Shown here: positions 2,859 through 20,272 of the stretch, in pieces
Position numbering within the stretch: the first letter of the stretch is position 1
How the letters are laid out: each line of letters opens with the position of its first letter
Origin: Parasynechococcus marenigrum WH 8102
Lineage (GTDB): Bacteria; Cyanobacteriota; Cyanobacteriia; PCC-6307; Cyanobiaceae
Assembly (NCBI RefSeq): GCF_000195975.1
Contig: NC_005070.1
Location: 1,380,001-1,412,000 of the forward strand
Length of the DNA: 32,000 nt
Direction of reading: 5' to 3'
Position numbers and translations under genes: made by a program
Notes under the pieces: model-generated
Seen by the model: the letters and a program-made list of their open reading frames with translations, nothing else
Told to the model about the DNA's origin: nothing
Database searches by the model: none

Positions 2859-3031
2859 GGCGGTTTCAGCAAAATTCTCTGTTGTGTAGCCGCATGAACT
2901 ACACAACCCTGGCCAGAGCCTGTAGGACAGATGTGTAGCACCTGCTACTGCACGTTCACCTCACCACTGGCGAGGCGCAGTTCGACTCAGGCCATGGAAC
3001 GGGGACCTGAGCTTGCTTCGAGGAACCCATC

Positions 3032-3136
3032 ATGACCCTGACCTATCGCGGCCAGAAGTACGTCCAGAACAACGCTGCTGCCACCAACAGCAAGCGTCCT
3101 GTTCTTGTGTACCGCGGCCACAAAGTGGCTCAGTAA
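3032..3136 (+). CDS. DUF4278-type cyanobacterial microprotein (34 aa)
   Basis: MTLTYRGQKYVQNN...VYRGHKVAQ carries the M.L.YRG..Y signature typical of DUF4278. An intrinsic terminator follows. Confidence 0.7.
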   Translation: MTLTYRGQKYVQNNAAATNSKRPVLVYRGHKVAQ

Positions 3137-3160
3137 GCAGCATTTTGATGCAGCTCAATC

Positions 3161-3186
3161 GCCCCGCTTCGGCGGGGCTTTTTTTG
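3161..3186 (+). terminator. Rho-independent terminator
   Basis: GCCCCGC-TTCG-GCGGGGC stem-loop followed by a T-run (3179-3185). Confidence 0.8.
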
Positions 3187-3191
3187 TGCTT

Positions 3192-3756: not shown

Positions 3757-3859
3757 GAGCCGATCAGGCCTTGGTCCTGAAGGTCTGGCTGGTACGACGT
3801 CATTCCGTAGCTGATCACACCGCGCGTGCCACCGGTGCCGCAGACAGTGGAAGGGCGGA

Positions 3860-3955
3860 GAAACCTAGGGTTCCGATCCCGTCAGGGATGCCTGGTCCGA
3901 GAGGTTTCGGTCGGTTCTGCCGGCTGCACGGAGGGACAAAAGCCCGGGAGACCGC
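3860..3955 (+). promoter_or_regulatory. Guanidine-I (ykkC/yxkD) riboswitch aptamer
   Basis: Conserved blocks CUAGGGUUCCG (3865-3875), GGUCCGAGAG (3894-3903) and ACGGAGGGAcAAAAGCCCGGGAGA (3928-3951). There is also a GAUCCC/GGGAU hairpin at 3875-3889. It lies directly 5' of a ureohydrolase gene. Confidence 0.85.
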
Positions 3956-3977: not shown

Positions 3978-5168
3978 ATGTCATCCCCAACGGACCCCAA
4001 CGGGGCCTTTCAGCGTTCGCATCCCAGCGAAGGCACTCAGGCGCTCGAGAAGGAACGCAAGCTGCCCCTCACCGGCTGGCAGCAGGAAGTTGATCAGGCC
4101 AAGCGCCTGGGTCTTGAAGCGGCCGAAAGCATCGTGGACCGCAACATCTCCACGTTCTCCCGCGGCGAGCTGCCCCACTTCGCGGGCATCAACACCTTCA
4201 TGAAGGCGCCCTACCTGGAGGATGTGAACCAGGTGGGCAACTACGACGTGGCCATCGTCGGGGTGCCCCACGACTGCGGCACCACCTACCGCCCCGGCAC
4301 CCGCTTCGGGCCACAGGGCATCCGCCGCATCTCGGCCCTCTACACCCCCTACAACTACGAAATGGGGGTGGATCTGCGCGAACAGATCACCCTCTGCGAT
4401 GTCGGCGACATCTTCACCATTCCGGCCAACAACGAGAAGAGCTTCGATCAGATCTCTAAGGGCATCGCCCACGTGTTCGCCAGCGGCGCATTCCCGATCA
4501 TTCTCGGCGGCGATCACTCCATCGGCTTCCCCACAGTGCGCGGCGTCTGCCGCCATCTGGGTGACAAGAAAGTGGGCATCATCCACTTCGACCGCCACGT
4601 CGACACCCAGGAGATCGACCTGGACGAGCGGATGCACACCTGCCCCTGGTTCCATGCCACCAACATGGCCAATGCTCCGGCTGAGAACCTGGTGCAGCTC
4701 GGCATCGGCGGCTGGCAGGTGCCGCGCGAGGGCGTGAAGGTCTGCCACGAACGCGGCACCAACGTGCTCACCGTCACGGACATCACCGAAATGGGGTTGG
4801 AGGCGGCAGCCCAGTACGCGATCGAACGGGCCACTGACGGCACCGACTGCGTTTACATCTCCTTTGACATCGACTGCATCGATGCCGGCTTCGTTCCCGG
4901 CACCGGCTGGCCCGAACCCGGCGGTCTGCTGCCGCGCGAAGCACTCAAGCTGCTCGAGCTGATCGTGCGCAATGTGCCGGTGTGCGGTCTCGAAATCGTG
5001 GAGGTGTCGCCGCCGTACGACATCAGCGACATGACCTCACTGATGGCCACCCGCGTGATCTGCGATGCCATGGCCCACCTGGTGGTCAGCGGCCAGCTGC
5101 CCCGCAAGGACAAGCCGGCCTGGATCAGCGATGTCTGCAACATGAACGTCGATCAGAAGTGGAGATAA
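3978..5168 (+). CDS. gdmH: Ureohydrolase-fold guanidine hydrolase candidate (GdmH / Sll1077-like; arginase-agmatinase family)
   Basis: Metal-ligand blocks GGDHS, FDRHVD and SFDIDCID. The start is set at ATG 3978 because 3771-3977 of the track ORF is riboswitch RNA. Gene order riboswitch-hydrolase-HypA-HypB-ABC matches what I recall for the Synechocystis sll1077 locus. Confidence 0.8.
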   Translation: MSSPTDPNGAFQRSHPSEGTQALEKERKLPLTGWQQEVDQAKRLGLEAAESIVDRNISTFSRGELPHFAGINTFMKAPYLEDVNQVGNYDVAIVGVPHDCGTTYRPGTRFGPQGIRRISALYTPYNYEMGVDLREQITLCDVGDIFTIPANNEKSFDQISKGIAHVFASGAFPIILGGDHSIGFPTVRGVCRHLGDKKVGIIHFDRHVDTQEIDLDERMHTCPWFHATNMANAPAENLVQLGIGGWQVPREGVKVCHERGTNVLTVTDITEMGLEAAAQYAIERATDGTDCVYISFDIDCIDAGFVPGTGWPEPGGLLPREALKLLELIVRNVPVCGLEIVEVSPPYDISDMTSLMATRVICDAMAHLVVSGQLPRKDKPAWISDVCNMNVDQKWR

Positions 5169-5171
5169 GCC

Positions 5172-5570
5172 ATGCACGAAGTCGACATGACCAAGTGCCT
5201 GCTGATCTCCCTCAATGAATGGCGGCAGCGTCGGGACGACGCCAGCGCGATGGTGGAGACCGTCCACCTCGAGGTGGGCCGCTTCACCTGCGTTGAGCCC
5301 GATCAGCTGGTGACCACCTACAACGCCGCGGTGCAGGGCACCTGGCTGGATGGTTCCCGGCTCACCATCACCGACATTCCTTTCGTCGGTCGGTGCCTGG
5401 TCTGCAACAGCACCTACGACCCCGTGCCGGAGAGCGCCTACCGCTCCCCCTGCTGCGATCACCCACTGGAGGAGATCGTCAGCGGCCGTGAACTGCGGAT
5501 CCGCAGCATCGATTACCGCAGTGCGGCCGGCGCTGCCCTTGAGTCCAGCTCCATCCAGCGCATGCGCTGA
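5172..5570 (+). CDS. ghaA: HypA-like Ni metallochaperone (GhaA-like)
   Basis: N-terminal MHE Ni-binding motif and a CLVC...CC Zn site. Starts 4 nt after the hydrolase stop. Confidence 0.75.
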   Translation: MHEVDMTKCLLISLNEWRQRRDDASAMVETVHLEVGRFTCVEPDQLVTTYNAAVQGTWLDGSRLTITDIPFVGRCLVCNSTYDPVPESAYRSPCCDHPLEEIVSGRELRIRSIDYRSAAGAALESSSIQRMR

Positions 5571-5591: not shown

Positions 5592-6326
5592 ATGCACATG
5601 CCCCTCGAGGACACCCTCGGTCTCAACCTCCTCGCCGCCAACCAGCACCAGGCGGAGCACAACCACGAGCATTTCCAGGCCTGGAACCTGCTCTGCCTCA
5701 ACCTGATGAGTAGCCCCGGTGCCGGCAAGACCGCCCTGCTCGAACGCTCCCTGCCGGCGTTGGCCGCCAAACACAAGATGGCGGTCCTGGAGGGCGACAT
5801 GACAACCCAGCTCGATGCCGAGCGTCTGGAAGCCGTCGGCATTCCAGTGGTGCCGATCACCACCGGTCGGGCCTGTCATCTCGATGCCGCCATGGTGAGC
5901 GGCGGACTCACGTTGCTGAAGCAACGCCTGGATCCAACCCAGCTCGATCTGCTGCTGGTGGAGAACGTCGGCAACCTTGTTTGCCCCGCTGAATTCGATG
6001 TGGGGGAACACCACAAGGTGGCCCTGCTCAGCGTCACCGAGGGCGACGACAAACCGCTCAAGTACCCGCTGATGTTCCGCCAGGCGGATGTGGTGCTGAT
6101 CACCAAGGTGGATCTGCTGCCCCACCTGCCGGTGGAGCTGGCGGCGATCCGCCGCAACATCCTCAGCATCAACCCCAACGCCACGGTGATCGAGGTCTCC
6201 GCCCTCAGCGGCGAAGGCCTCGATGTCTGGCACCAGTGGGTGCGGCAGGCCCTTGCCGATCGCACCGCCGTCTCCTCTGCTGCAGCCAGGGCTGCAGACC
6301 AGTCCCCCGCTCTGGCCACCGCCTGA
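5592..6326 (+). CDS. ghaB: HypB-like Ni-inserting GTPase (GhaB-like)
   Basis: His-rich N-terminus (HQAEHNHEH), P-loop SSPGAGKT and [13 protein letters not shown] (HypB/UreG SIMIBI class). Confidence 0.85.
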
Positions 6327-6362
6327 GCCCCGATCCCGTCATCCACCCATCACGCCGATGCC

Positions 6363-7364
6363 ATGACCAAGCAACTCCGCAATCTCCTGATCGCCGGCCT
6401 GGCGATCGTTCTGGCCGTCGCCTGTTCCAAGCCCTCAACCCCAACTTTGGGCGGCACCCCGATCGTTCTCGGCTACAGCAACTGGGCCGGTTGGTGGCCC
6501 TGGGCCATCGCCGTTGAAGAGAAGCTGTTCGAAAAGAACGGCGTGAATGTAGAGATGAAGTGGTTCGACGGCTACGTGCAGTCGATGGAAACCTTCGCCG
6601 CCGGCAAGATCGACGGCAATTCCCAGACCCTGAACGACACCATCTCCTTCCTGCCAGGCGAGAACGGTGGCGAAGTTGTTGTGCTGGTGAACGACAACTC
6701 CGCCGGCAACGACCAGATCATTGCTGACGCCTCGATCACCTCCATCGCAGAGCTCAAGGGCAAGACTGTGGCCGTTGAAGAGGGCGTCGTAGACGATTAC
6801 TTGCTCAGCCTGGCTCTCAAGGACGTTGGCCTCAGCCGTGAGGATGTGGTGATCAAAGGCATGCCCACCGACCAGGCCGCCACAGCCTTTGCCGCCGGGC
6901 AGGTGGATGCCGTCGGCGCCTTCCCGCCCTACACCGGCACCGCCATGCAGCGCGAGGGTGCCCGGGTGATCGCCAGCTCCAAAGAGTACCCCGGTGCCAT
7001 TCCCGATCTGCTCACCGTGAGCGGTGATCTGATTAAGGAACGGCCCGACGACGTTCAGAAGATCGTCAAGACCTGGTGGGACGTGCGCGACTTCATGGAG
7101 AAGAACCCCGAGAAATCGGAGGCAATCATGGCCAAGCGGGCCGGCATTCCCACAGAGGAGTACGAGCAGTACAAGGACGGCACCCGTTTCTTTTCGATCG
7201 ACGAGAACCTGGAAGCCTTCAGCGAAGGCGAAGGCATGCAGTACATGCCCTTCGCCTCGGAATCGATGGCGGAATTCATGGTCTCCGTTGGCTTCATTCC
7301 CGAGACGCCCGACATGAGCAACCTGTTTGATTCCAGCTTCATCAAGAAGGTCGCCGACTCCTGA
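6363..7364 (+). CDS. ABC transporter substrate-binding lipoprotein (NitT/TauT, NMT1-like)
   Basis: Signal peptide with lipobox LAVAC. The YSNWAGWWPW region is typical of nitrate/sulfonate/bicarbonate-type SBPs. Confidence 0.8.
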   Translation: MTKQLRNLLIAGLAIVLAVACSKPSTPTLGGTPIVLGYSNWAGWWPWAIAVEEKLFEKNGVNVEMKWFDGYVQSMETFAAGKIDGNSQTLNDTISFLPGENGGEVVVLVNDNSAGNDQIIADASITSIAELKGKTVAVEEGVVDDYLLSLALKDVGLSREDVVIKGMPTDQAATAFAAGQVDAVGAFPPYTGTAMQREGARVIASSKEYPGAIPDLLTVSGDLIKERPDDVQKIVKTWWDVRDFMEKNPEKSEAIMAKRAGIPTEEYEQYKDGTRFFSIDENLEAFSEGEGMQYMPFASESMAEFMVSVGFIPETPDMSNLFDSSFIKKVADS

Positions 7365-8191
7365 TGACTGCCACTGCCGCCGCTGCATCCAAGGGGAGGG
7401 GCTCAGGGCTCCTCTCTCTGCTCACCCTTGGGGCCACCCCATCGGGGGCCGTGCGTGGCGGCCTGCAGGTCGCCTCCCTGCTGATCCCACTGTTGGCCTG
7501 GGCGGCCATCGCCTCCCTGGGCCTGGTAGATGAGAAGTTCCTGCCATCACCGGGGGCGGTGTTCCGCTCCCTGGCCTCGATGGCCGAAAGCGGCATCCTG
7601 TTCCAGGACATCGTCGCCAGCACCGGTCGGGTGTTCGCTGGCTTTCTGCTCGCCACCGTTCTGGCGGTTCCGATCGGCATCTGCATGGGGGTGTACCCAG
7701 CGGTGTGCGCCCTGTGCGAACCCCTGATCGCCATGCTCCGCTACATGCCGGCAGCAGCGTTCATTCCCCTGCTGATTATCTACCTCGGCATCGGCGAGGA
7801 ACCCAAGATCGCCCTGATCTTTCTCGGCACGATCTACTTCAACATCCTGATGGTGATGGATGCGGTGAAGTTTGTTCCCAAGGAACTGATCGAAACCACC
7901 CTCACCCTCGGCGGCCGCAGCCGCCAGGTGCTGGTGAAGGTGGTGGCCCGTTACAGCCTGCCCAGCATTATCGACACCCTGCGCATCAACATCGCCACCT
8001 CCTGGAACCTGGTGGTGGTGGCCGAACTGGTGGCGGCCGAAGTGGGTCTGGGCAAACGGATTCAGCTGGCCCAGCGCTTCTTCCGCACCGATCAGATCTT
8101 CGCCGAACTGATCGTGCTGGGGTTGATCGGCTTCGCCATCGACATGGGCTTCCGTCTGCTGCTGCGCCTCAGCTGCCGCTGGGCGGTCTGA
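7364..8191 (+). CDS. ABC transporter permease
   Basis: Multi-TM protein of the binding-protein-dependent transport family. Its ATG overlaps the SBP TGA by 1 nt. Confidence 0.85.
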   Translation: MTATAAAASKGRGSGLLSLLTLGATPSGAVRGGLQVASLLIPLLAWAAIASLGLVDEKFLPSPGAVFRSLASMAESGILFQDIVASTGRVFAGFLLATVLAVPIGICMGVYPAVCALCEPLIAMLRYMPAAAFIPLLIIYLGIGEEPKIALIFLGTIYFNILMVMDAVKFVPKELIETTLTLGGRSRQVLVKVVARYSLPSIIDTLRINIATSWNLVVVAELVAAEVGLGKRIQLAQRFFRTDQIFAELIVLGLIGFAIDMGFRLLLRLSCRWAV

Positions 8192-8194
8192 ACC

Positions 8195-8950
8195 ATGGAA
8201 CTGCTGGTTCAGAACCTCTCCAAACAGTTCGGCGACAAAGCCGTCCTCGAGGACATCAACTTCTCGATGCAATCCGGTGAGTTCATCACCTTCGTCGGCA
8301 GTTCCGGCTGCGGCAAGAGCACCCTGCTCCGGCTGATCGCCGGCCTGGATCACCCCAGCGGGGGCCGGATCCACGTCGATGGATCCCCCGTTGAAGGGCC
8401 CGGCCCCGACCGGGGCATGGTGTTTCAGAAATACAGCCTCTACCCCTGGCTGACTGCCGCCGACAACGTCGCCTTCGGCATGCGGCTACAGGGCATGACG
8501 TCGGCTGACGTGCGTAATCGCACCGCCTATTTCCTCGAGGTGGTGGGTCTGCAGGATGCAGCCACCAAACTGCCGAGGGAACTCTCCGGCGGCATGCAGC
8601 AACGGGTGGCGATCGCCCGCGCCCTGGCCACCAACCCCAGCGTGCTGCTGCTGGATGAACCCTTCGGTGCTTTGGACCTGCAGATCCGCGAAACCATGCA
8701 GGAGTTCCTGCTCCAGCTTTGGCAACGCACCGGCCTGACCGTGCTGCTGATCACCCACGACGTGGAGGAAGCCCTGGTGCTGGCTCAACGCGTGCACGTA
8801 CTGGCACCGAACCCGGGCCGGATCATCCGCTCGCTCGAGGTGACCCTGAACAAAAGCGATTTAGATCAGCTGCGCCTCAGCGCTGAGTTCCTGCAGCTGC
8901 GCCGCAGCCTGGCCACCAGCCTGCGGCAGCTGGAACCAACCATCGGGTGA
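8195..8950 (+). CDS. ABC transporter ATP-binding protein
   Basis: Walker A GSSGCGKST, signature LSGGMQQR and Walker B LLLDEP. Confidence 0.9.
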   Translation: MELLVQNLSKQFGDKAVLEDINFSMQSGEFITFVGSSGCGKSTLLRLIAGLDHPSGGRIHVDGSPVEGPGPDRGMVFQKYSLYPWLTAADNVAFGMRLQGMTSADVRNRTAYFLEVVGLQDAATKLPRELSGGMQQRVAIARALATNPSVLLLDEPFGALDLQIRETMQEFLLQLWQRTGLTVLLITHDVEEALVLAQRVHVLAPNPGRIIRSLEVTLNKSDLDQLRLSAEFLQLRRSLATSLRQLEPTIG

Positions 8951-10002
8951 TGAAGGCTCCGCAACGGTTTCTGCCGGCCCAGGCCTATACCGATCCGGAG
9001 TTGTATCGCTGGGACTGCAGCGGTTACGCCCAGCGCTACTGGCATCCCCTGGTCGCTGGATCGGCCCTGCCGGCCGGCCACAGCCTGGCTCTAACCCTGC
9101 TGAATCAGCCCCTTCTGCTCACCCGAGCCGAGGACGGACCCCCCCGCGCCTTTCTCAACCGCTGCCCCCACCGCGGCGTGGCCTTCCAGCACGAACGCGA
9201 GGGAGCAACCGCCTGCCGTCGCCTGATCTGCCCGTACCACGGCTGGACCTACAGCCTGGAAGGGGAGCTGCTGGCCGCGGCGCGCGAGCAGGGCTTCGAT
9301 CCCCCCTTCCATCGCCAGGACTGGCCGCTCCCTTCCCTGCCTTGCCGCGAGGATGGCCCCTTGATCTGGGTCGCACTCACCCAGGCGGTGACGCCCCTGG
9401 ACCAGCAGCTCGACCTGGTGCATCAACGGGTGGCGGACCTCTGGACCCAGCCCCTCCATCAGGTGCGGATCCTGCAGCGCACCCTGCGCTGCAACTGGAA
9501 GATCGCCCACGACAACACCCTCGACGACTACCACGTCGCCGTGGCCCATCCAACGACTCTGCACCGCGAACAGGGGCCGGTGCGCGATTACGTCCACCAC
9601 ACCACGGCCCTGGTGAACCTGCTGGTGACGCCCCACGCCGATGGCGGTTGCTTTCACACCTTTGGCCTGCCGCCCTGGCTACATCTGATCACCTGGCCGG
9701 ACGGCCGTCTGGCGTTGTTGGAGTTTCTGCCCCTCAGCCTCGACAGCTGCTGCATGCAGTTGCGGCTGTTCGCTCCCAGCGCAGCCAGCGGCGAACCGCC
9801 GACGGATGCGGCCAACAAAGCCTGGTTGAAAGAGCTGCTGGCCTTTTTGGACGAGGACCAGCCCCTGGTCGAATCCGCTCAGCGCGGCTACCGCAGTGGA
9901 CTCGTGCCCGGTCCACCCCACGGGCTCGAGCAACGGATCATCCACTGGCAGGAGATCTACCGACAGGTGCTGCCCAAAGAGCTGGCCCAATCGCTCAGCT
10001 GA
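8950..10002 (+). CDS. Rieske [2Fe-2S] non-heme-iron oxygenase, alpha-subunit type
   Basis: Rieske motif CPHRG...CPYHGW and mononuclear Fe motif DDYHVAVAH (D-x2-H-x4-H). ATG 8950 overlaps the ATPase TGA by 1 nt; the track starts it at GTG 8947. Confidence 0.85.
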   Translation: MKAPQRFLPAQAYTDPELYRWDCSGYAQRYWHPLVAGSALPAGHSLALTLLNQPLLLTRAEDGPPRAFLNRCPHRGVAFQHEREGATACRRLICPYHGWTYSLEGELLAAAREQGFDPPFHRQDWPLPSLPCREDGPLIWVALTQAVTPLDQQLDLVHQRVADLWTQPLHQVRILQRTLRCNWKIAHDNTLDDYHVAVAHPTTLHREQGPVRDYVHHTTALVNLLVTPHADGGCFHTFGLPPWLHLITWPDGRLALLEFLPLSLDSCCMQLRLFAPSAASGEPPTDAANKAWLKELLAFLDEDQPLVESAQRGYRSGLVPGPPHGLEQRIIHWQEIYRQVLPKELAQSLS

Positions 10003-10039: not shown

Positions 10040-10780
10040 TCACACCGGAACCGGTGAGCGCAGCTCAGCATGCAGCGCATCCCAGAAACGCTTGCGATCC
10101 TCGATCACCTGGCGCTTCACCTGCTCCACCCGTTGCATCGCCTTGGCGTCGTCCCCCACTAGGGCCAGCACCATTGCCTCGGCCAACGGGCCATGGCTGT
10201 CGCCATCGAGGGCGATGTGGCGTTCGAGGTACCAGCACAACGTTGGACAGGGCAACGCCAGGGCCTGCAGTCGCTTCAGCAGCGCACGGAACAGATCCGG
10301 CACCAACAGCTCCCGGCCGTAGGCAAACGCCGCAGCCAGGGCATGGCTCTCACCATCCTGAATCAGCACCTGCGTGGTAGTGAGAAAACGGGCTGCAGCG
10401 GGCGGGATCCGCGGGTGTGGCACAGCGCTGCCGAGATCACCGGCCATCGCCTGCTGCAGCACCGCGTCGATGGCCGAGGTGTCGGCACCGATCTCCACCA
10501 TCGCCCGGCGGTAGATGCCGAAATGGGACAGATGCAACGGGCCACCGAGGGCCTCAGGCAGACAATCACACTCCTCCTCCGCCACCAGGCTGTTGATCAA
10601 CCCGGCGCTGCGCGGATGCTTGGGCGGCACCCAGGGAACACCGGATGGTGCCAGGTGCTGCTGCAGCGCCTTGAGCAACAACATGAAGTCCCACACCGCA
10701 AACACGTGGTGTTCAACGAACACCCGAAGATCTGCGATAGAAACAATCGCCTCCGGCAAGGGATGGCGCTGGAGATCCAT
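10040..10780 (-). CDS. DUF3050-family protein (heme-oxygenase-like fold)
   Basis: VEHHVFAVWDFMLLLKAL near the N-terminus is the pattern I associate with DUF3050. 246 aa, all-helical composition. Confidence 0.65.
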   Translation of the reverse strand: MDLQRHPLPEAIVSIADLRVFVEHHVFAVWDFMLLLKALQQHLAPSGVPWVPPKHPRSAGLINSLVAEEECDCLPEALGGPLHLSHFGIYRRAMVEIGADTSAIDAVLQQAMAGDLGSAVPHPRIPPAAARFLTTTQVLIQDGESHALAAAFAYGRELLVPDLFRALLKRLQALALPCPTLCWYLERHIALDGDSHGPLAEAMVLALVGDDAKAMQRVEQVKRQVIEDRKRFWDALHAELRSPVPV

Positions 10781-10782
10781 CG

Positions 10783-11250
10783 TCAGAGGCCCAGTTCCGT
10801 CAGACCCGGGAAATCATCGGGTCTTGGGCCATCACCCCAGGTGAACAGGAGATCGCCCTCCGCGATCGGCACGTCGTTGATGCTGGCCTCACGCCGGCGC
10901 ATCAACCCGTTCTCGGCAAATTCCCAGTTCTCGTTGCCATGGGCGCGAAACCACTGCCCCTCGGCGTCATGCCACTCATATTGGAAACGCACAGCGATGC
11001 GGTTACCGGAACACGCCCACACTTCTTTGATCAATTTGTAGTCCAGTTCCTTCGCCCACTTGCGTTGCAAAAAAGCGAGAATCTCAGCCCGGCCGTGGAT
11101 GAATTCACTGCGATTGCGCCAGACACTGTCCTCCGTATAGGCCAATGAAACCTTGTCTGGATCCTTGCTGTTCCACGCATTTTCGGCCATCCGTGCCTTC
11201 TGCTGCGCGGTTTCGAGGGTGAACGGTGGAAAGGGAGGTTTTCCGGTCAT
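10783..11250 (-). CDS. DUF1348-family protein (NTF2/SnoaL-like fold)
   Basis: [43 protein letters not shown] matches the DUF1348 N-terminal pattern. Ends 2 nt before the DUF3050 start. Confidence 0.7.
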
Positions 11251-11295
11251 GGCATTAACAAATTGGGGGAAGGAAAGAGGGGATGCATCACAGGG

Positions 11296-11622
11296 TCAGG
11301 GCAACTGACTGATCACCCGCACGTTCTGATCGGGCTTGTAGCGGGCAATCCACTGGCGCAGCTGGGATTCCTCTTCGTCCGTGCGGGTGCAGGCAAATCC
11401 ATAGCGGGCACGAACCCGTTCGGAAGCAGCCCGCAGTGCCCTGACACCCAACGATTCCAGTTCCGACACCCGAAATGAATCGCCTGGTTTCAGATACTCA
11501 AGAATCACAGTTGATGGTGAATACAACGTGCTGGATTGGCCATCCGGCCATTCCAACTGAAAGCGAACCTCAGGCATCCATCCGTACACATTTGTTGGAT
11601 CCTGCAACAGGCCATTCGGCAT
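11296..11622 (-). CDS. MSMEG_0570-family nitrogen-starvation-response protein (Nit1C member, NitG-equivalent)
   Basis: 108-aa ORF from ATG 11622 (MPNGLLQDPTNVYGW...), 7 nt after the AIR-synthase-like stop. Assigned by position and size in the Nit1C order. Confidence 0.6.
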   Translation of the reverse strand: MPNGLLQDPTNVYGWMPEVRFQLEWPDGQSSTLYSPSTVILEYLKPGDSFRVSELESLGVRALRAASERVRARYGFACTRTDEEESQLRQWIARYKPDQNVRVISQLP

Positions 11623-11629
11623 CGCTGTC

Positions 11630-12607
11630 TCATCCGCCACAGCCGAATCCGGTGAGTCCGCTCGCCACCTCCCAGAGGCAATGCGACGCCCCGGAGATCT
11701 GCAGCAGCACCCGGCATTCACCGGTGCTGAAGCGACCGATCCGACAGCAGATCAGGTCCGGATCGCCCTGCAGCATCCTCACCAGGGTTGACGTCCGGGA
11801 CGGATCCACGGCCAGCAAGTAGCCGAAGCTCGGGAAACAGCTGAGCCAGGCCTGTTCCTCCACCCCATCAGGGCGGTCCACCGCATCCAGATCGATGCTG
11901 AGCTCCAGGCCACAGGCTTCGGCAAACATCACCGACGTTCCCGTCAGTCCACCCATGCTGATGTCCTTGGCAGCGCGCACCAGGCCCTCAGCCGCCAGTG
12001 CCGGCAGCAGGCTCAGATGGGAGCGCAGTCGAGCTGGGGTGGCATGGGTGGCCGCATCCCAGAAGGGGTAATGGCGGTAAAAGGCTCCGTTTTTGTTCAC
12101 GAGCATCCACAGTTCGTCGCCGGGTGCTGCCGCCCGGGCGGAGAGCACCGGCCCCTCTGCCACCCCAAGAACGGCAACCGACAACGCTGTGTAGGGACTC
12201 TGTTGATTGGAATGCCCCCCCACCATCGGCACCCCGAAGCTCTCACAGGCGAATCGCATCCCCTCCAGCAGAGGCTGCAACGCATCTGCACCACCACTCC
12301 AGACACTGTTAACCAACGCCAGCGGTCGACCGCCCATCGCCGCGATGTCGCTCAGATTCACCAGCACACCGCTCCAGCCGGCAAACCACGGGTCCTCCTC
12401 CACCAGCCCAGGTTGCATGCCCTCACAGGCCAGCAATAGCTGGCCGTTCTGGCGAGGAAGCAGAGCGGCATCATCCCCCAGCATCCCCGCTGCACCAAGC
12501 TGCGGGAACGGCTGGTGGCAAAACATCCCGGCCGCTGGCTGAATGTCGCGTTTGGCCAGCAGACCGCTGTGCAGCCGCAGCCCATCCATCAGCTCGGTAA
12601 AGCTCAT
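11630..12607 (-). CDS. sll0787-type AIR-synthase-like (PurM/HypE superfamily) protein
   Basis: GDDAALL motif and PurM-like two-domain length. Its ATG overlaps the GNAT stop (ATGA). Confidence 0.8.
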   Translation of the reverse strand: MSFTELMDGLRLHSGLLAKRDIQPAAGMFCHQPFPQLGAAGMLGDDAALLPRQNGQLLLACEGMQPGLVEEDPWFAGWSGVLVNLSDIAAMGGRPLALVNSVWSGGADALQPLLEGMRFACESFGVPMVGGHSNQQSPYTALSVAVLGVAEGPVLSARAAAPGDELWMLVNKNGAFYRHYPFWDAATHATPARLRSHLSLLPALAAEGLVRAAKDISMGGLTGTSVMFAEACGLELSIDLDAVDRPDGVEEQAWLSCFPSFGYLLAVDPSRTSTLVRMLQGDPDLICCRIGRFSTGECRVLLQISGASHCLWEVASGLTGFGCGG

Positions 12608-13275
12608 GCGGCAAGGGATGGCAGGAGCGAACATGACGGCCGCCGCTCCCGCGACGGCGCGTAGTAATTGAGATCGGCCTGCATCAGGTGATGCCGGATG
12701 CCACGGATCTCGAGTTCCTCAATCGAGGCCCAGTGCAGACGGCGAAAGAAACGCACGTTCTGAATCTGCACCATGGCCATGAAACGATCACAGCCCCAGC
12801 CGTTGGCGGTGGTGACCGCCTTCCAGATCAACCCCTTGCCGATCTGGTTGTGACGGCGAAAGTCGCTGTGCACCCCGAGCCGTCCGCCATACCAGAGCCG
12901 TGGTTCGGTCTCCACGATCCGCACCACACCCACCACCTGGGATTCCGGGCCCTGCTTATCTTCGTCGGGTTGACAGTCGTGATGCAGGGCCGCGATCGGA
13001 CAGGCGATGCGGTCGAGTTCATCCCGATCGGACTGTTCGAACACGTGCTGCTCTTCGCAGAAGATGCTGCGCCGCAACGACCAGTAACCCGCGATCAGGG
13101 GCGAATCGGGACGCAGCAGGTGAAAGCTGAACCGATCCGAACTGGCGGTGGGCGACAGGCGGAAATCATCGGCGTCGATGCCGATGCCAGCCCGCACCGA
13201 AGGGGTGAACAGGCTGGGGGCGGAGCTGATGCTGCGGCCGATGCCACGGCTGCTGGGATCGAGACAGAACACCAT
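12604..13275 (-). CDS. MSMEG_0567/Sll0786-type GNAT N-acetyltransferase
   Basis: GNAT motif A-like RRHNQIGKG. Start ATG 13275 lies 2 nt after the radical SAM stop. The longer track ORF (to 13512) would overlap the upstream gene. Confidence 0.75.
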   Translation of the reverse strand: MVFCLDPSSRGIGRSISSAPSLFTPSVRAGIGIDADDFRLSPTASSDRFSFHLLRPDSPLIAGYWSLRRSIFCEEQHVFEQSDRDELDRIACPIAALHHDCQPDEDKQGPESQVVGVVRIVETEPRLWYGGRLGVHSDFRRHNQIGKGLIWKAVTTANGWGCDRFMAMVQIQNVRFFRRLHWASIEELEIRGIRHHLMQADLNYYAPSRERRPSCSLLPSLAA

Positions 13276-13277
13276 GG

Positions 13278-14369
13278 TCAGGCCGCCTGCTCGAACAGCG
13301 ACAGCGCCGAACAGGCTCCACATTTGGCGCAACCGGCCGACATCGCCTCGGAGCGCAGATCTCCTTGGTGCAGCAGCTCGGCAACCCCCTTGTAGACGTC
13401 GACCATGAAGGCTGTGTCCGGTGCCGGATGGTGCTCCAAGGGTGTGCCGGAGATCGGCACAAACGGAACCACAAACGGGTAGACCCCCAGTTCGATCAGG
13501 CGGCGGCTGCAATCGAGCAGTGCCTCCCGGCTGTCGCCCAGGCCGGCCAGCAGATAGGTGGACACCTCTCCTCGCCCGAACACGGCGACAGCATCGGCGA
13601 AGGCCGCGTAGTAACGCTCGAGGCTGAGCTCCGATTTGCCCGGAAGGATGCGACGCCGCACCTCCAGCTCCACCACCTCGAGGTGCATGCCGAGGCTGTC
13701 GATTCCCGCAGCCTTCATCCGCTCGTACCAGATCGGATCATCGGGGGGTTCGCACTGCCCCTGGATCGGCAGATCGACCCGACGCTTCACCGCCGCGGCC
13801 GTCTCGGCCATCAGCCGGGCGCCGCGGTCATCGCTGTTGGGGGTGCCGGTGGTCATCACCAGCTGCTTCACACCATCCAGGCGCACCGCAGCTTCCGCAA
13901 CCTCGGCCACCTGCTCCGGGGTCTTGCGGATCACCGTGGCGCCGTCCTCAAGGGACTGCTCGATGGCGCAGAACTGGCAGGACTGGGAGCGATCTCGGAA
14001 GCGGATACAGGTCTGCAACAGCGTGGTGGCCAGCACATCTCGGCTGTGCAGCAAGGCGATGGAGCGGTAGGGGATCCCCTCCGCCGTGCTCAGGCCATAG
14101 AAGGCCGGTTCATCTGTGGTGGTCACCACAGGCAGGGCGTCCTGCTGAGGACCGGTCAGGGTCAAGCCGTCACCACGTGCCGCCAGGCTGTACGCCGATG
14201 AGCCGGAGACGTCGTTGTAAACGGGCACCATCACCGTGGTGCCATCCACATTCAGGGCCCTGTGGTCAGAGGGGCCAGCCCCGCCGCGCCGGCCCCGGTT
14301 TCCCTCCAGTGGTTCGGCCCGAACCCCCTTCACCTGCAGTTCGGTCACCAGGCGTCCGAGCTCAGACAT
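13278..14369 (-). CDS. MSMEG_0568-type radical SAM protein
   Basis: Cys cluster [14 protein letters not shown] and a TIM-barrel-like rSAM core (VMTTGTPNS). Its start overlaps the nitrilase stop by 8 nt (ATGTCTGA). Confidence 0.8.
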
Positions 14370-15378
14370 GGTTGATCTCCTCGATCACATGGGACATCCC
14401 GGCGGCCATTGACGTTTCGGCCATCGACGTTTCGGATGGAACCGGATCGCTCGCCATCTCCTGCATCGCTACGGCCGTGTTGCGATTGATCCGCAGCGAC
14501 AACAGTTCCGGACGGCTGTAATGGCCGACGCTGTCCATCATTCGCTTGCGCTTGGTGATCAAGGCCAGATCGAGTTCGGCGATGGCCAGGCCTTCACCGT
14601 CCGGCAAGGGACCCGCCAGGTAGCGGCCTTCAGGACTGATCACAGCGGTGTGACAGCCCCCTTGAAACGCCTTGTGCAACGAAGCATCTGGCGTGATCGC
14701 CGCATAGTCCTCCGGATCCAGCCATCCGGTGGAGCAGATCACGAAACAGCCAGCCTCCAGGGCGTGATGCCGCATGGTAACGGCGGTCTGCTCGCTGAAG
14801 ATCGGCCCGACCAGCGACCCGGGGAACTGGGCGCAGTGGATCTCCTCGCCCTGGACCATCAACGCGTAGCGCGCCAGCGGGTTGTAGTGCTCCCAGCAGG
14901 CCAACGCCCCGACCCGACCAAGCGGGGTGGACACCACCGACAGGCCGGAACCGTCCCCCTGCCCCCACACCATCCGCTCGTGATAAGTGGGAGTGATCTT
15001 GCGGCGCTTGAGAGCGATCTCGCCGCAACTGTTGAACAGCAACTGGGTGTTGTAGAGCGTGCCACCGTCCCGTTCGTTCACCCCCAGCAACACCTGCATG
15101 CCGTGCTGCCGTGCGGCCGCTGCCACCGCATCCGTGACCGGTCCGGGCACCACCACAGCCTGGTCATAGAGCGCCAGGTGGGAGCGCCCCATGCGAACCG
15201 GGGGCTCAACAAATGAGAAGTAGGGGTAATAGGGCAGGAACGTCTCCGGAAAGACGATCAGCTCAACGCCTTCGGCCGCCGCTTCGGCCATCGCGTCGAG
15301 CACCTTCTGAAGAGATCCATCCAGGCTGAACAGGACGGGACGGATCTGGGCAGCGGCAACTTTGACAGTGGTCACCAT
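14362..15378 (-). CDS. Nit6803/Nit1C-type nitrilase
   Basis: Catalytic triad contexts FPETF (Glu), [12 protein letters not shown] (Lys) and ACWEHYNP (Cys). Confidence 0.9.
14406..14435. repeat. Tandem 15-nt duplication inside the nitrilase 3' end
   Basis: ccattgacgtttcgg / ccatcgacgtttcgg with 1 mismatch. It encodes [10 protein letters not shown] in the C-terminal tail. Confidence 0.9.
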
Positions 15379-15398
15379 GAAATAGGTACGACGCCGAC

Positions 15399-15881
15399 TC
15401 AGAGCGTCCAGGTGTCGAGGATGAAGGCCCCTTCCTTGCGATGCATCAGCACGATGTCGAGCACATCAAGGGGATTCACCGGGGTGATGCCCGGCATGAG
15501 CGCCTTCTCGCTGTGTCCGTAAAGCGCCTGCAGAGCGAAGCGACAGGCGTACACCTTTCCCCCCTGATCCATGAACTTCTGCAGCCGTGCGTTGAAGTTC
15601 AGGTGACCATCAAAGGCGGCATCACCGAGCTTGGGGAATCCACGCATCACACCGAGGGTGACGCCAGGGCCATAGAGCAGAACAGAGGTTTCAAACCCTT
15701 TGGTGATCAGACGGCTGGCCTGCAGAAGATTGACCAGGCCAATAGAACCTTCGAAAGCAACGGTGTGAAACGTGACCAAGGCCTTTTCACCCGGCTCAGC
15801 CTTCACATCGGGAAAGACTTTTTCCTCGTAGTCAACAAGATAATCCCCCGGCTGGTTAGCGGGACGGTCGACGACAGGCAT
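15399..15881 (-). CDS. MSMEG_0572/Sll0783-family nitrogen-starvation-response protein (first gene of the Nit1C string)
   Basis: 160 aa from ATG 15881 ([18 protein letters not shown]...). The track's TTG-initiated 212-aa version would consume the divergent promoter region. Confidence 0.7.
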
Positions 15882-16067
15882 GTGAAGAAACCATAAGGAC
15901 TCAAAGACTGGCTCCGGTCGGCCCACAAAAAATGTACGAAATACGACCAAATTCGAGACTGAATCAAACTGGATGACAGCGGGAGCGCAATCAAATTCGG
16001 TGGCCTTGGCTACAACACAAGTGTTGATTTCAAACAAGGATTAGGGCATTAAGTCATGTGCTGATTG

Positions 16068-18599: not shown

Positions 18600-19307
18600 T
18601 TAATTCACCAGCTGCTGGTAGGCCTCATTCACCCGACGAAACGCCTCGGCTGATCCGCCCATGTCTGGGTGGTGAAGCTTCACCAATCGGCGATGGGCTC
18701 GCTTGATCGCCTCGGCCGTCGCCCCCGGCTCCAGACCGAGCACAGCCAGAGCATCAGCCCGGAAATCGCCGCTGGGGCGACGAGGGCCACGCAAGCGCTG
18801 GTGTAACTCCGCCACCACGCGGCGGGGATCTTCATCCAGCCATTCACTGGCCCTGACTCCATAGAGAGCAAAGGCCGCCAGCACCGCCGTGTCCTGGAGG
18901 GTTGCCGGGTTTGCGACCGCCGCAAGCAGATCGCTGCCGAGACCATCCACCAGCCGGTTCAACCGCTGCTGCAGGTTGAGATTCGCAGGGAACCCCCGCC
19001 GGTTGAGCCGCTCGATCAACGCCTCCAGGCCTGCCTGATCGAACTCGCTCCAACCGGGTTGCTTGGCCAGTTCATCCCCCCAACGCTGCACCTGCACCCG
19101 TCGGATCAGGTTCATCGTTGGTTCAGGCCGAGGGCGCTGCTGACGACGCAGTCGTTCCAGCTCCCGTTGCATGCGCTGGAGCTCTCGCCGCAGGGCATCG
19201 TTCTCCGCCAGCAACGCCTCGACGTTGCTGGTCACCCGCTCATCACAATTGCTCGTCGAGGCCCCTGACGGTGGTGAGCCGGTCCATTGACGCGGATCAA
19301 AACCCAC
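18600..19307 (-). CDS. J-domain (DnaJ-like) protein with N-terminal coiled coil
   Basis: C-terminal J domain ...AIKRAHRRLVKLHHPDMGG... with an HPD motif. Confidence 0.75.
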   Translation of the reverse strand: MGFDPRQWTGSPPSGASTSNCDERVTSNVEALLAENDALRRELQRMQRELERLRRQQRPRPEPTMNLIRRVQVQRWGDELAKQPGWSEFDQAGLEALIERLNRRGFPANLNLQQRLNRLVDGLGSDLLAAVANPATLQDTAVLAAFALYGVRASEWLDEDPRRVVAELHQRLRGPRRPSGDFRADALAVLGLEPGATAEAIKRAHRRLVKLHHPDMGGSAEAFRRVNEAYQQLVN

Positions 19308-19325
19308 TGCAGCCCCCAGGTCGAC

Positions 19326-19991
19326 TCACCATGGCAACACCTGACCATTGGCATGCCAGAAGCTGCCGCTGGTCTCCAGGGTCAGCGCATCAATGCGGGC
19401 CAGCAGACCCTGCACGGCGTCCGAGGGATCAACTCCACTTGGGTTGAAGCGAATCATGCCGGTGCGCACCAGTCCCGGATGCAGGATCGCCACGGCGATC
19501 CCCCGGGGCTTCAAATCGATCGCCAATGATTTGCCGGCAATGTTCAGGGCCACCTTCGACATCCGATAGCCGTAGGAGCCCCCCGAGCTGTTGTCGTCAA
19601 TCGACCCCATGCGACTGGTCATCAGCGCCAGCTTGCTGCCCTGTGGCATCTGCGGAACCAGGGCCCGTGCCAACAGCAAGGGAGCTAAGGCATTCACCTC
19701 GAACTGGCGGCGAATGGCCTCCGCATCAAGATCCTCCAGCCCCATCGAGTGAAGGATGCCGGCGTTGAGAATCACGCCATCGAGCGGGCAACCGTCAAGA
19801 CGCCGCACCAGCTCATCGATGGATGACTGCTCACTCAGCTCGATGCCGGCCTCGAGCTGCACCCCCAGCGACTCCAGCTCAGGGCTGATCTGTCGGCACA
19901 CGGCAATCACTGCATCCCCACGGGCCTGGAGCTGCTGGCAGTAGGCCAGTCCGATGCCTCGGTTGGCGCCTGTCACCAGATAAGTCTCCAT
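19326..19991 (-). CDS. Short-chain dehydrogenase/reductase (SDR)
   Basis: TGANRGIG cofactor motif and catalytic YRMSK (YxxxK). Start taken at METYLVTGA. Confidence 0.85.
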   Translation of the reverse strand: METYLVTGANRGIGLAYCQQLQARGDAVIAVCRQISPELESLGVQLEAGIELSEQSSIDELVRRLDGCPLDGVILNAGILHSMGLEDLDAEAIRRQFEVNALAPLLLARALVPQMPQGSKLALMTSRMGSIDDNSSGGSYGYRMSKVALNIAGKSLAIDLKPRGIAVAILHPGLVRTGMIRFNPSGVDPSDAVQGLLARIDALTLETSGSFWHANGQVLPW

Positions 19992-20272
19992 CAGTTCCTC
20001 GCCGTTGCCGCCCATCCTGAGGCCAAAGCGTCGTTCGGCCTGAACGATTCAGGGTGTCTAGCCTGAAGTTGGAATTCGAATCGAGGCCCAGGCGAGACAT
20101 CTCATCGGCCACATCGCAGAGCTCGAATCGCGGTTAGCTCACCCGCAGCACTGGACCGAAGGCGAAAACACCAACAACACTGAAAAGCTGAGGCAACTGC
20201 GTTTCGAGTTGCGTCGCCGTCAGTCGCTGGGTGAGCAGGATCCACTGGAAGAGGACGTCTCTCCATCCACAC

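Follow-up and report, generated by a model that had tools for sequence, protein, structure and literature searches.

A Rieske-type oxygenase gene at the end of the picocyanobacterial guanidine hydrolase gene cluster: a candidate guanidine-releasing monooxygenase

This study concerns a gene for a Rieske non-heme-iron oxygenase that lies at the 3' end of a guanidine utilization cassette in Parasynechococcus marenigrum WH 8102. The window, i.e., the whole stretch of DNA that was analyzed, comprises 32,000 nucleotides (nt) of NC_005070.1, and unless stated otherwise coordinates are positions within it. Between approximately 3.8 and 10.0 kb, seven closely packed genes are found on the plus strand (Table 1). 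According to Pfam and NCBIfam assignments, the first six match the order gdmH-ghaA-ghaB-gimABC described in Synechocystis, and the Rieske gene is the seventh and last. The GdmH protein encoded in the window was 97% identical to that of strain CC9605 and 99% identical to that of Synechococcus YX04-3, in a homologue search whose matches were close picocyanobacterial proteins only. The speB2 gene of this cluster is the orthologue of Synechocystis Sll1077 (PMC10119275, PMC12704784), and the Synechocystis GdmH hydrolyzes guanidine (PMC12704784).

Table 1. Features of the guanidine cassette in the 32,000-nt window of WH 8102.
Feature	Position	Strand	Evidence
NtcA-like box GTAGCTGATCACAC, GTAG-N7-YAC (GTA-N8-YAC)	3807..3820	+	Pattern scan and upstream alignment of 8 strains
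Guanidine-I (ykkC) riboswitch aptamer	3854..3952	+	Rfam RF00442, 87.5 bits (gathering score 63)
gdmH, Ni-dependent guanidine hydrolase, arginase family	3978..5168	+	PF00491, 263 bits
ghaA, HypA-like nickel metallochaperone	5172..5570	+	PF01155, 83 bits
ghaB, HypB-like nickel GTPase	5592..6326	+	TIGR00073, 280 bits
gimA-like binding protein of guanidine ABC (ATP-binding cassette) importer	6363..7364	+	TIGR01728 (SsuA family), 269.6 bits
gimB-like permease	7364..8191	+	PF00528
gimC-like ATPase, stop codon TGA at 8948-8950	8195..8950	+	PF00005, 118.6 bits
Rieske non-heme-iron oxygenase alpha subunit, 350 residues	8950..10002	+	PF00355 and PF00848
Rieske [2Fe-2S] ligands, C72-x-H74...C94-x-x-H97	9163..9240	+	Invariant in 80/80 family members
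Mononuclear-iron motif, D192-D193-Y-H195-x4-H200	9523..9549	+	CntA alignment; invariant in 80/80
D303, third iron ligand (CntA D323)	9856..9858	+	CntA alignment; invariant in 80/80
Stem-loop after the Rieske gene	10003..10065		Fold of -32.2 kcal/mol, z-score -2.7

The stop codon of the ATPase gene and the ATG of the Rieske gene (8950-8952) overlap by one nucleotide within the sequence TGATG (8948-8952), which confirms an observation of the first-pass annotation of this DNA, made without database searches. An alternative in-frame start, GTG at 8947, would create a 4-nt overlap (GTGA). Neither a promoter-like nor a terminator-like site was found at this junction. The proposal of the same annotation that the Rieske gene is the last cistron of a riboswitch-led operon is thus supported by the codon overlap, by the Guanidine-I aptamer ahead of gdmH and by the gene order. 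A stem-loop begins in the 37-nt gap past the Rieske gene and overlaps the 3' end of the DUF3050 gene lying beyond it in convergent orientation; this stem-loop has no T-run and, as a putative terminator, probably marks the end of the operon.

A scan of one genome per species yielded 195 relatives; the counts given here refer to the loci of the best 80 of these 195. The ATPase gene was located immediately 5' of the Rieske gene, on the same strand, in all 80 loci, and the distance between the ATPase stop and the Rieske start ranged from -7 to +43 nt in 79 of them, with overlaps often of the types ATGA, TGATG or GTGnTGA. In the remaining locus (L075), which has no in-frame start codon, this gap was not measurable. 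Every locus with sufficient upstream DNA displayed the full order gdmH-hypA-hypB-(extra gene)-binding protein-permease-ATPase-Rieske. Per locus, no more than a single riboswitch and a single conserved element ahead of it, the NtcA-like box, were found. This placement of the Rieske gene behind the ATPase gene is far beyond chance. The codon overlap and the conserved short spacing (at most 43 nt) suggest that the gene is co-transcribed with the gdmH operon, and the regulation of the entire cluster by the riboswitch is also predicted in RegPrecise, as indicated by Doré et al. (PMC10119275).

With regard to the upstream region, in 63 of the related loci nhmmer placed a homologue of the window aptamer ahead of gdmH, and 12 of 14 loci tested with Rfam reached the gathering score for Guanidine-I (10 of 10 in a first set, CC9605 and contig L096). 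The match was sub-threshold (46.6 bits) in L085, a marine Synechococcus contig, and no Guanidine-I aptamer was detected with Rfam upstream of gdmH in L095, a Prochlorococcus-like contig; the gene linkage is therefore independent of the riboswitch. When eight marine strains were aligned, the NtcA-like box was the sole conserved block in an otherwise divergent upstream region, and its center is approximately 41 nt ahead of the first aptamer nucleotide. This box is likely the nitrogen-control element of a single promoter, and together with the riboswitch it would fit one nitrogen-controlled promoter, as in Synechocystis, for whose guanidine operon nitrogen control has been described (PMC12704784).

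The cassette is present with the same seven genes but with different neighbors on both sides in CC9605 and other marine strains, and the Rieske gene is kept within it even though the flanks differ among the window, CC9605 and L085. The cassette therefore moves as a unit. The same seven genes were also found on L095, which is a JGI (Joint Genome Institute) metagenome contig of 31% GC content; the Rieske protein encoded there is 38% identical to that of the window and keeps the motif NWKIAHDNTLDDYHVAIAHKDTLHKEQGPIKNY. Linkage of Rieske homologues with guanidine loci, proposed in the first-pass annotation as a check, holds practically without exception in picocyanobacteria (80 of 80 loci and L095). 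A disruption of the L095 Rieske open reading frame (ORF) was considered as a sign of pseudogenization in Prochlorococcus, but this was rejected, since other members of the same cluster read through; the split corresponds to a 1-nt difference in a T-run and probably represents an assembly error or a rare variant. The L095 regions concerned, for the undetected aptamer and for the split, are 849-1061 and 6830-6845. On L085, where the cassette lies next to a gene for a DUF3987 protein, the aptamer is sub-threshold and gimC is split into two ORFs (regions 9820-9917 and 14133-14889), and this copy may be decaying or recently transferred.

Outside this group the family is sharply delimited. Among 1.84 billion representative proteins, 15 representatives matched at E ≤ 1e-30, and the score dropped from 381 to 154 bits at the best full-length match beyond the picocyanobacterial and Prochlorococcus-like clusters. 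The nearest outgroups, with at most 36% identity, adjoin a methyltransferase gene, a TetR regulator gene or aromatic-type clusters, with no guanidine genes, and their proteins likewise match no assigned family. The nearest non-guanidine relative, P0414 on contig L088 (7559-9521; cluster of P0250, which is 36% identical), is encoded directly 3' of an N-methyltransferase gene of the NNMT/PNMT/TEMT type and near a gene for a sensor kinase fused to an amino-acid permease domain, a setting which hints at small amines as substrates of neighboring family branches, too.

Pairwise comparisons gave ratios of nonsynonymous to synonymous substitution rates (dN/dS) of 0.14-0.29 for the oxygenase, indicative of purifying selection. 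The values of most other cassette genes were lower in the same comparisons, typically 0.02-0.15, with HypA above the oxygenase in two of nine pairs. When the 3' part of the cassette (8195-10002) and the genes ahead of it were compared with CC9605 (L081), identity was 94% for the binding protein and the permease, 79% for the ATPase and 60% for the oxygenase, while synonymous divergence (dS) was only moderately raised at the 3' end. This steep divergence points to rapid evolution of the proteins, or to an exchange of alleles, at the operon end.

A second type of cassette, found in Cyanobium and freshwater-type loci, carries an extra gene between ghaB and gimA (L047 5897-7261; L029 5922-7280; L012 5833-7245; L076, a contig of WH 5701, 5697-7286), an insertion by which it differs further from the Synechocystis cluster. 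With 565 bits for TIGR03105 (cut-off 469.6), the extra gene scores as a type III glutamine synthetase. The alternative that it encodes a gamma-glutamyl-amine ligase, which would have hinted at methylamine release, was rejected given that its score fell far under the cut-off for gamma-glutamylputrescine synthetase. The GimA protein of the Cyanobium type is about 43% identical to the marine type, and the Rieske gene is present in both types of cassette.

The product of the Rieske gene matched PF00355 with 55 bits (cut-off 20.3) and PF00848 (Ring_hydroxyl_A) with 55.9 bits (cut-off 24.9). The Rieske motif is present as C72-P-H74 and C94-P-Y-H97. All 80 family members keep these four ligands as well as D192, H195, H200 and D303, and residues 186-214 hardly vary among them. 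D192, H195, H200 and D303 align with E205, H208, H213 and D323 of the carnitine monooxygenase CntA, D192 occupying the position of the bridging acidic residue, and the iron motif is retained in the 38%-identical Prochlorococcus-like copies. The assignment to the Rieske non-heme-iron oxygenases made from the letters alone thus held, with both domains and all metal ligands intact. The AlphaFold2 (AF2) model reached an overall predicted local distance difference test (pLDDT) score of 89.5, and Foldseek superimposed it best on CntA (template modeling score, TM, 0.77-0.83) and on Stc2 (0.80-0.81), in agreement with the two-domain fold of alpha subunits. In a sequence profile search of the PDB, CntA was the best and the only near-full-length match (E 1.5e-35), followed by Stc2 (E ~1e-29), which covered the N-terminal half. 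No curated NCBIfam family claims the protein: the best match, the GbcA equivalog NF058607, scored 88.1 bits against a cut-off of 670 and aligned over residues 5-204 only. The protein is thus predicted to be a complete Rieske oxygenase of the branch that oxidizes small nitrogen cations, placed in none of the characterized families of that branch. No beta-subunit gene was detected within the operon (Pfam scan of the window and related loci), and the enzyme is probably a soluble homotrimer (alpha3, without a beta subunit), as in the CntA/Stc2-like branch. Likewise, the earlier remark that no reductase or ferredoxin gene is adjacent agrees with our scan, as none was found among the window ORFs searched against Pfam. 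Taken together, neither a promoter of its own, nor a lack of linkage, nor orthology to a Rieske enzyme of known substrate (the GbcA score being far below its cut-off), all of which that annotation had named as contrary evidence, was observed.

The residues around the putative pocket set the family apart. Tyr203 of CntA corresponds to Thr190, the bridging Glu205 to Asp192, Cys206 to Asp193 and Cys209, the second Cys of a pair, to Val196; Thr190 and Asp193 are invariant, the former in 80 of 80 members. As a whole, the Thr/Asp/Asp/Val signature is invariant in the family and was found nowhere else among 76 related representatives with a recognizable motif. Most neighboring sequences carry E-C-Y-H-C, the signature of group V, at the place where the family has D192-D193-Y-H-V196. 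Compared with group V (sensu Quareshy et al. 2021), the protein shares the relationship to CntA, Stc2 and GbcA and the alpha-only organization, but it has Thr190 instead of the group Va aromatic residue at the Tyr203 position and lacks the bridging Glu and the Cys-x-x-Cys pair present in some members. In CntA, Tyr203 makes a pi-cation contact to the trimethylammonium group, and group Vb enzymes (Stc2, GbcA) also have no aromatic residue there (PMC7948474); the ammonium of the CntA substrate points to Cys206 at a distance of about 4.4 Å (PMC10952381). A carboxylate and a hydroxyl at these positions would be better suited to a guanidinium, which donates hydrogen bonds, than to a quaternary ammonium. 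E295, aligned to CntA Tyr315, was also considered as a second guanidinium-binding carboxylate and was rejected, as Glu, Gln, Ala or Ser are found at this position in the family, with Ser in the Prochlorococcus-like copy.

The closest characterized counterpart is CntA of Acinetobacter baumannii (PDB 6y8j and others), which is of similar size, likewise needs no beta subunit and carries its Rieske and 2-His-1-carboxylate motifs at the same places. CntA acts on a small nitrogen cation and cleaves its C-N bond by hydroxylating the adjacent carbon. Both proteins differ in that identity is 21-22%, in the bridging residue (Glu205 in CntA, Asp192 here), in the absence of a CntB-type reductase gene from the window operon and in the metabolic context, which is carnitine for CntA and guanidine assimilation here. 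Small zwitterionic nitrogen cations are N-demethylated by the stachydrine demethylase Stc2 (PDB 3vca/4qup) and by the glycine betaine monooxygenase GbcA/BmoA; the catalytic domains of these enzymes diverge from that of the window oxygenase. Cyanobacterial Rieske enzymes with guanidinium-bearing substrates are also known, namely SxtT, SxtH, GxtA and AerC (PMC12371840). However, SxtT and the related SxtDIOX chain matched the Rieske domain only (residues 30-146, E ~1e-15 to 1e-16), and these four enzymes belong to biosynthetic gene clusters as opposed to the nutrient operon studied here. The hydroxylation of a carbon next to a guanidino nitrogen, after which guanidine is lost spontaneously, is carried out by EFE, NapI and plant homoarginine-6-hydroxylases (PMC12186494). 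These are Fe/2-oxoglutarate enzymes, unrelated to Rieske oxygenases in fold and cofactor system. We know of no Rieske enzyme that releases guanidine.

At the level of the gene cluster, sll1077-sll1082 of Synechocystis PCC 6803 comprises the same six genes with a Guanidine-I riboswitch and nitrogen control (PMC12704784) but no Rieske gene (PMC10119275), which the picocyanobacterial cassette always adds as the seventh. The association itself is not new. Doré et al. (2023) had already described the Rieske gene (CK_00002251 in Cyanorak) downstream of the speB2/gdmH cluster in most Synechococcus and Cyanobium genomes, in a cluster named Syn-eCAG_001/Pro-eCAG_004 with a ykkC riboswitch, and handled its product as an Fe-S protein only, with iron as cofactor and with no catalytic role given (PMC10119275). 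The idea that a Rieske gene is a novelty in guanidine operons therefore has to be revised, given that the linkage had been published. A 2025 study of the Synechocystis system makes no mention of an oxygenase, and our literature search retrieved nothing relevant linking Rieske enzymes with the guanidine riboswitch or with methylguanidine. New here are the prediction that the protein is a complete oxygenase from the CntA/Stc2 branch, its distinctive signature at the pocket, the purifying selection acting on it, the codon overlap or near-overlap with gimC in 79 of 80 loci, and its retention on a low-GC Prochlorococcus-like contig with no detectable riboswitch.

Because the gene occupies the same operon position in every related picocyanobacterial genome examined, a guanidine-type nitrogen compound is a very probable substrate. 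On this basis we tentatively favor, as a serious possibility that falls short of being probable, a CntA-like monooxygenase which would cleave or dealkylate a substituted guanidine and thereby feed GdmH. A single transcript behind the NtcA-type box and the Guanidine-I riboswitch would encode GdmH, its nickel chaperones, the importer and the oxygenase, the latter receiving electrons from a general ferredoxin. The substrate would be small and carry a guanidinium group, as do methylguanidine, guanidino acids and similar N-substituted guanidines, and it would be hydroxylated at the carbon bonded to a guanidino nitrogen. The resulting carbinolamine would collapse to free guanidine and an aldehyde, by the same chemistry with which CntA frees trimethylamine from carnitine, and GdmH would convert the guanidine to urea and ammonium. 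In this manner, the oxygenase would broaden the nitrogen sources entering the pathway of the operon. Regulation would fit such a role. Catabolic operons are commonly induced by an intermediate of their pathway. Methylguanidine and aminoguanidine, as close guanidine analogues, very likely also induce riboswitch-controlled genes according to a review (PMC12186494). It is conceivable too, and proposed with still more reserve, that this is the first Rieske-type guanidine-releasing enzyme, with a pocket switched from quaternary ammonium to guanidinium through Thr190 and Asp193, and that methylguanidine and guanidino acids are cleaved.

Several observations weigh against this proposal. The mapping of the pocket depends on the ungapped metal motif within an alignment to CntA of 22% identity, the AF2 model falls below a pLDDT of 50 precisely at residues 196-202, and E295, the second candidate acidic pocket residue, is not conserved. 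The oxygenase is the fastest-evolving gene of the cassette (60% identity to CC9605, compared with 97% for GdmH). In a plasmid collection, no Rieske gene was found at GdmH-like loci on Rhodobacterales and Rubrobacter plasmids, the sole Rieske match in that collection being a 28%-identical Novosphingobium gene. Moreover, the riboswitch senses the proposed product and not the proposed substrate. Finally, the Synechocystis GimA binds free guanidine tightly, with a dissociation constant (Kd) of 97 nM (PMC12704784), and Synechocystis itself has the cluster without a Rieske gene (PMC10119275).

An activity on another small cationic nitrogen compound of the choline, glycine betaine or carnitine type, with the gene placed in the operon through shared NtcA-controlled nitrogen scavenging, seems unlikely. 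All the closest characterized relatives (CntA, Stc2 and GbcA) oxidize quaternary ammonium compounds and most neighboring sequences carry the group V signature, which would be in line with such a role. However, the gene was seen solely at the end of gdmH cassettes (80 of 80 loci and the Prochlorococcus-like contig), other residues stand in place of the pi-cation aromatic residue and of the group V Cys pair, and the score with the GbcA model was 88 bits against a cut-off of 670.

We regard as rather improbable that the enzyme performs N-oxygenation of free guanidine or of a toxic compound closely resembling it (for example aminoguanidine or hydroxyguanidine) in detoxification or as a nickel-independent side route. 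Free guanidine is the ligand of the riboswitch and of the importer as well as the substrate of GdmH, it is reported in the literature to be toxic to cyanobacteria at low concentration, and N-oxygenation by Rieske enzymes is known (PMC12445004). Conversely, this reaction would compete with GdmH for the nitrogen source, would give reactive N-hydroxy products and has no precedent; furthermore, the nearest relatives attack a carbon adjoining nitrogen, but guanidine has no carbon available for hydroxylation.

Two other alternatives carry very little weight. That the product is an iron-sulfur electron-transfer or cofactor protein of the guanidine system and no enzyme, as its annotation and discussion as a 'Rieske Fe-sulfur protein' by Doré et al. 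(2023) and the depletion of the cluster in low-iron ocean regions (PMC10119275) might suggest, is scarcely credible in view of the full catalytic domain (PF00848), the 2-His-1-carboxylate site and bridging Asp invariant in 80 of 80 members, and the match of the fold to oxygenase alpha subunits over the whole length. Equally far-fetched is an independent transcription unit merely adjoining the importer genes, for which it could be argued that the riboswitch may control translation of gdmH alone, as there is no terminator hairpin between aptamer and ATG; the stop/start overlap, the narrow gaps in 79 of 80 loci, the junction without a promoter-like site and the relocation of the cassette as a unit between genomic contexts all speak against it.

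Picocyanobacteria are among the most abundant phototrophs. Guanidine has been recognized as a real nitrogen source only recently, and its natural sources are an open question (PMC12186494). An oxygenase tied to a guanidine hydrolase operon points to a further substrate feeding this pathway, and the identity of that substrate would reveal organic nitrogen compounds actually used by picocyanobacteria. If the proposed release of guanidine from substituted guanidines holds, marine and freshwater picocyanobacteria, including some Prochlorococcus, would harvest nitrogen from these compounds besides free guanidine. The CntA/Stc2 branch of Rieske oxygenases would thereby gain a new class of substrates, and the counter-selection of the cluster where iron is scarce could find an explanation.

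The surroundings of the cassette hold further features. Convergent with the Rieske gene lies a 'nitrogen starvation' cluster of the Nit1C or sll0783-sll0787 type (10040-16037, minus strand), whose members comprise DUF3050, DUF1348, an MSMEG_0570 family protein, an sll0787 AIR-synthase-like protein, a Sll0786 GNAT protein, an MSMEG_0568 radical SAM protein, a Nit6803 nitrilase and a Sll0783 family protein; it is not a neighbor of the cassette in CC9605. Beyond it, approximately 8.6 kb downstream of the cassette, genes for a DnaJ-domain protein and a short-chain dehydrogenase are found (18603-20015, minus strand), and in CC9605 a gene pair sharing these Pfam domains is located 5' of gdmH, at a distance of about 2.4-3.9 kb. 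If both pairs are orthologous, they would indicate that a genomic island (Syn_GI005 in Doré et al.) has been rearranged internally.

Upstream of the operon, a cytochrome P450 gene (815-2059, plus strand; PF00067, 140 bits) is present; the tested window ORFs included neither a ferredoxin nor a reductase that could serve as its partner. A Glutamine-II riboswitch (RF01704, 68.7 bits; 2950-3011) is preceded by a perfectly palindromic NtcA-type box, GTAGCACCTGCTAC (2935-2948), and followed by an ORF of 34 residues (3032-3136) and a GC hairpin with a T-run (the whole region spanning 2935-3190). The same Glutamine-II riboswitch occurs in CC9605 beside a DUF4278-like mini-ORF (L081 5685-5871).

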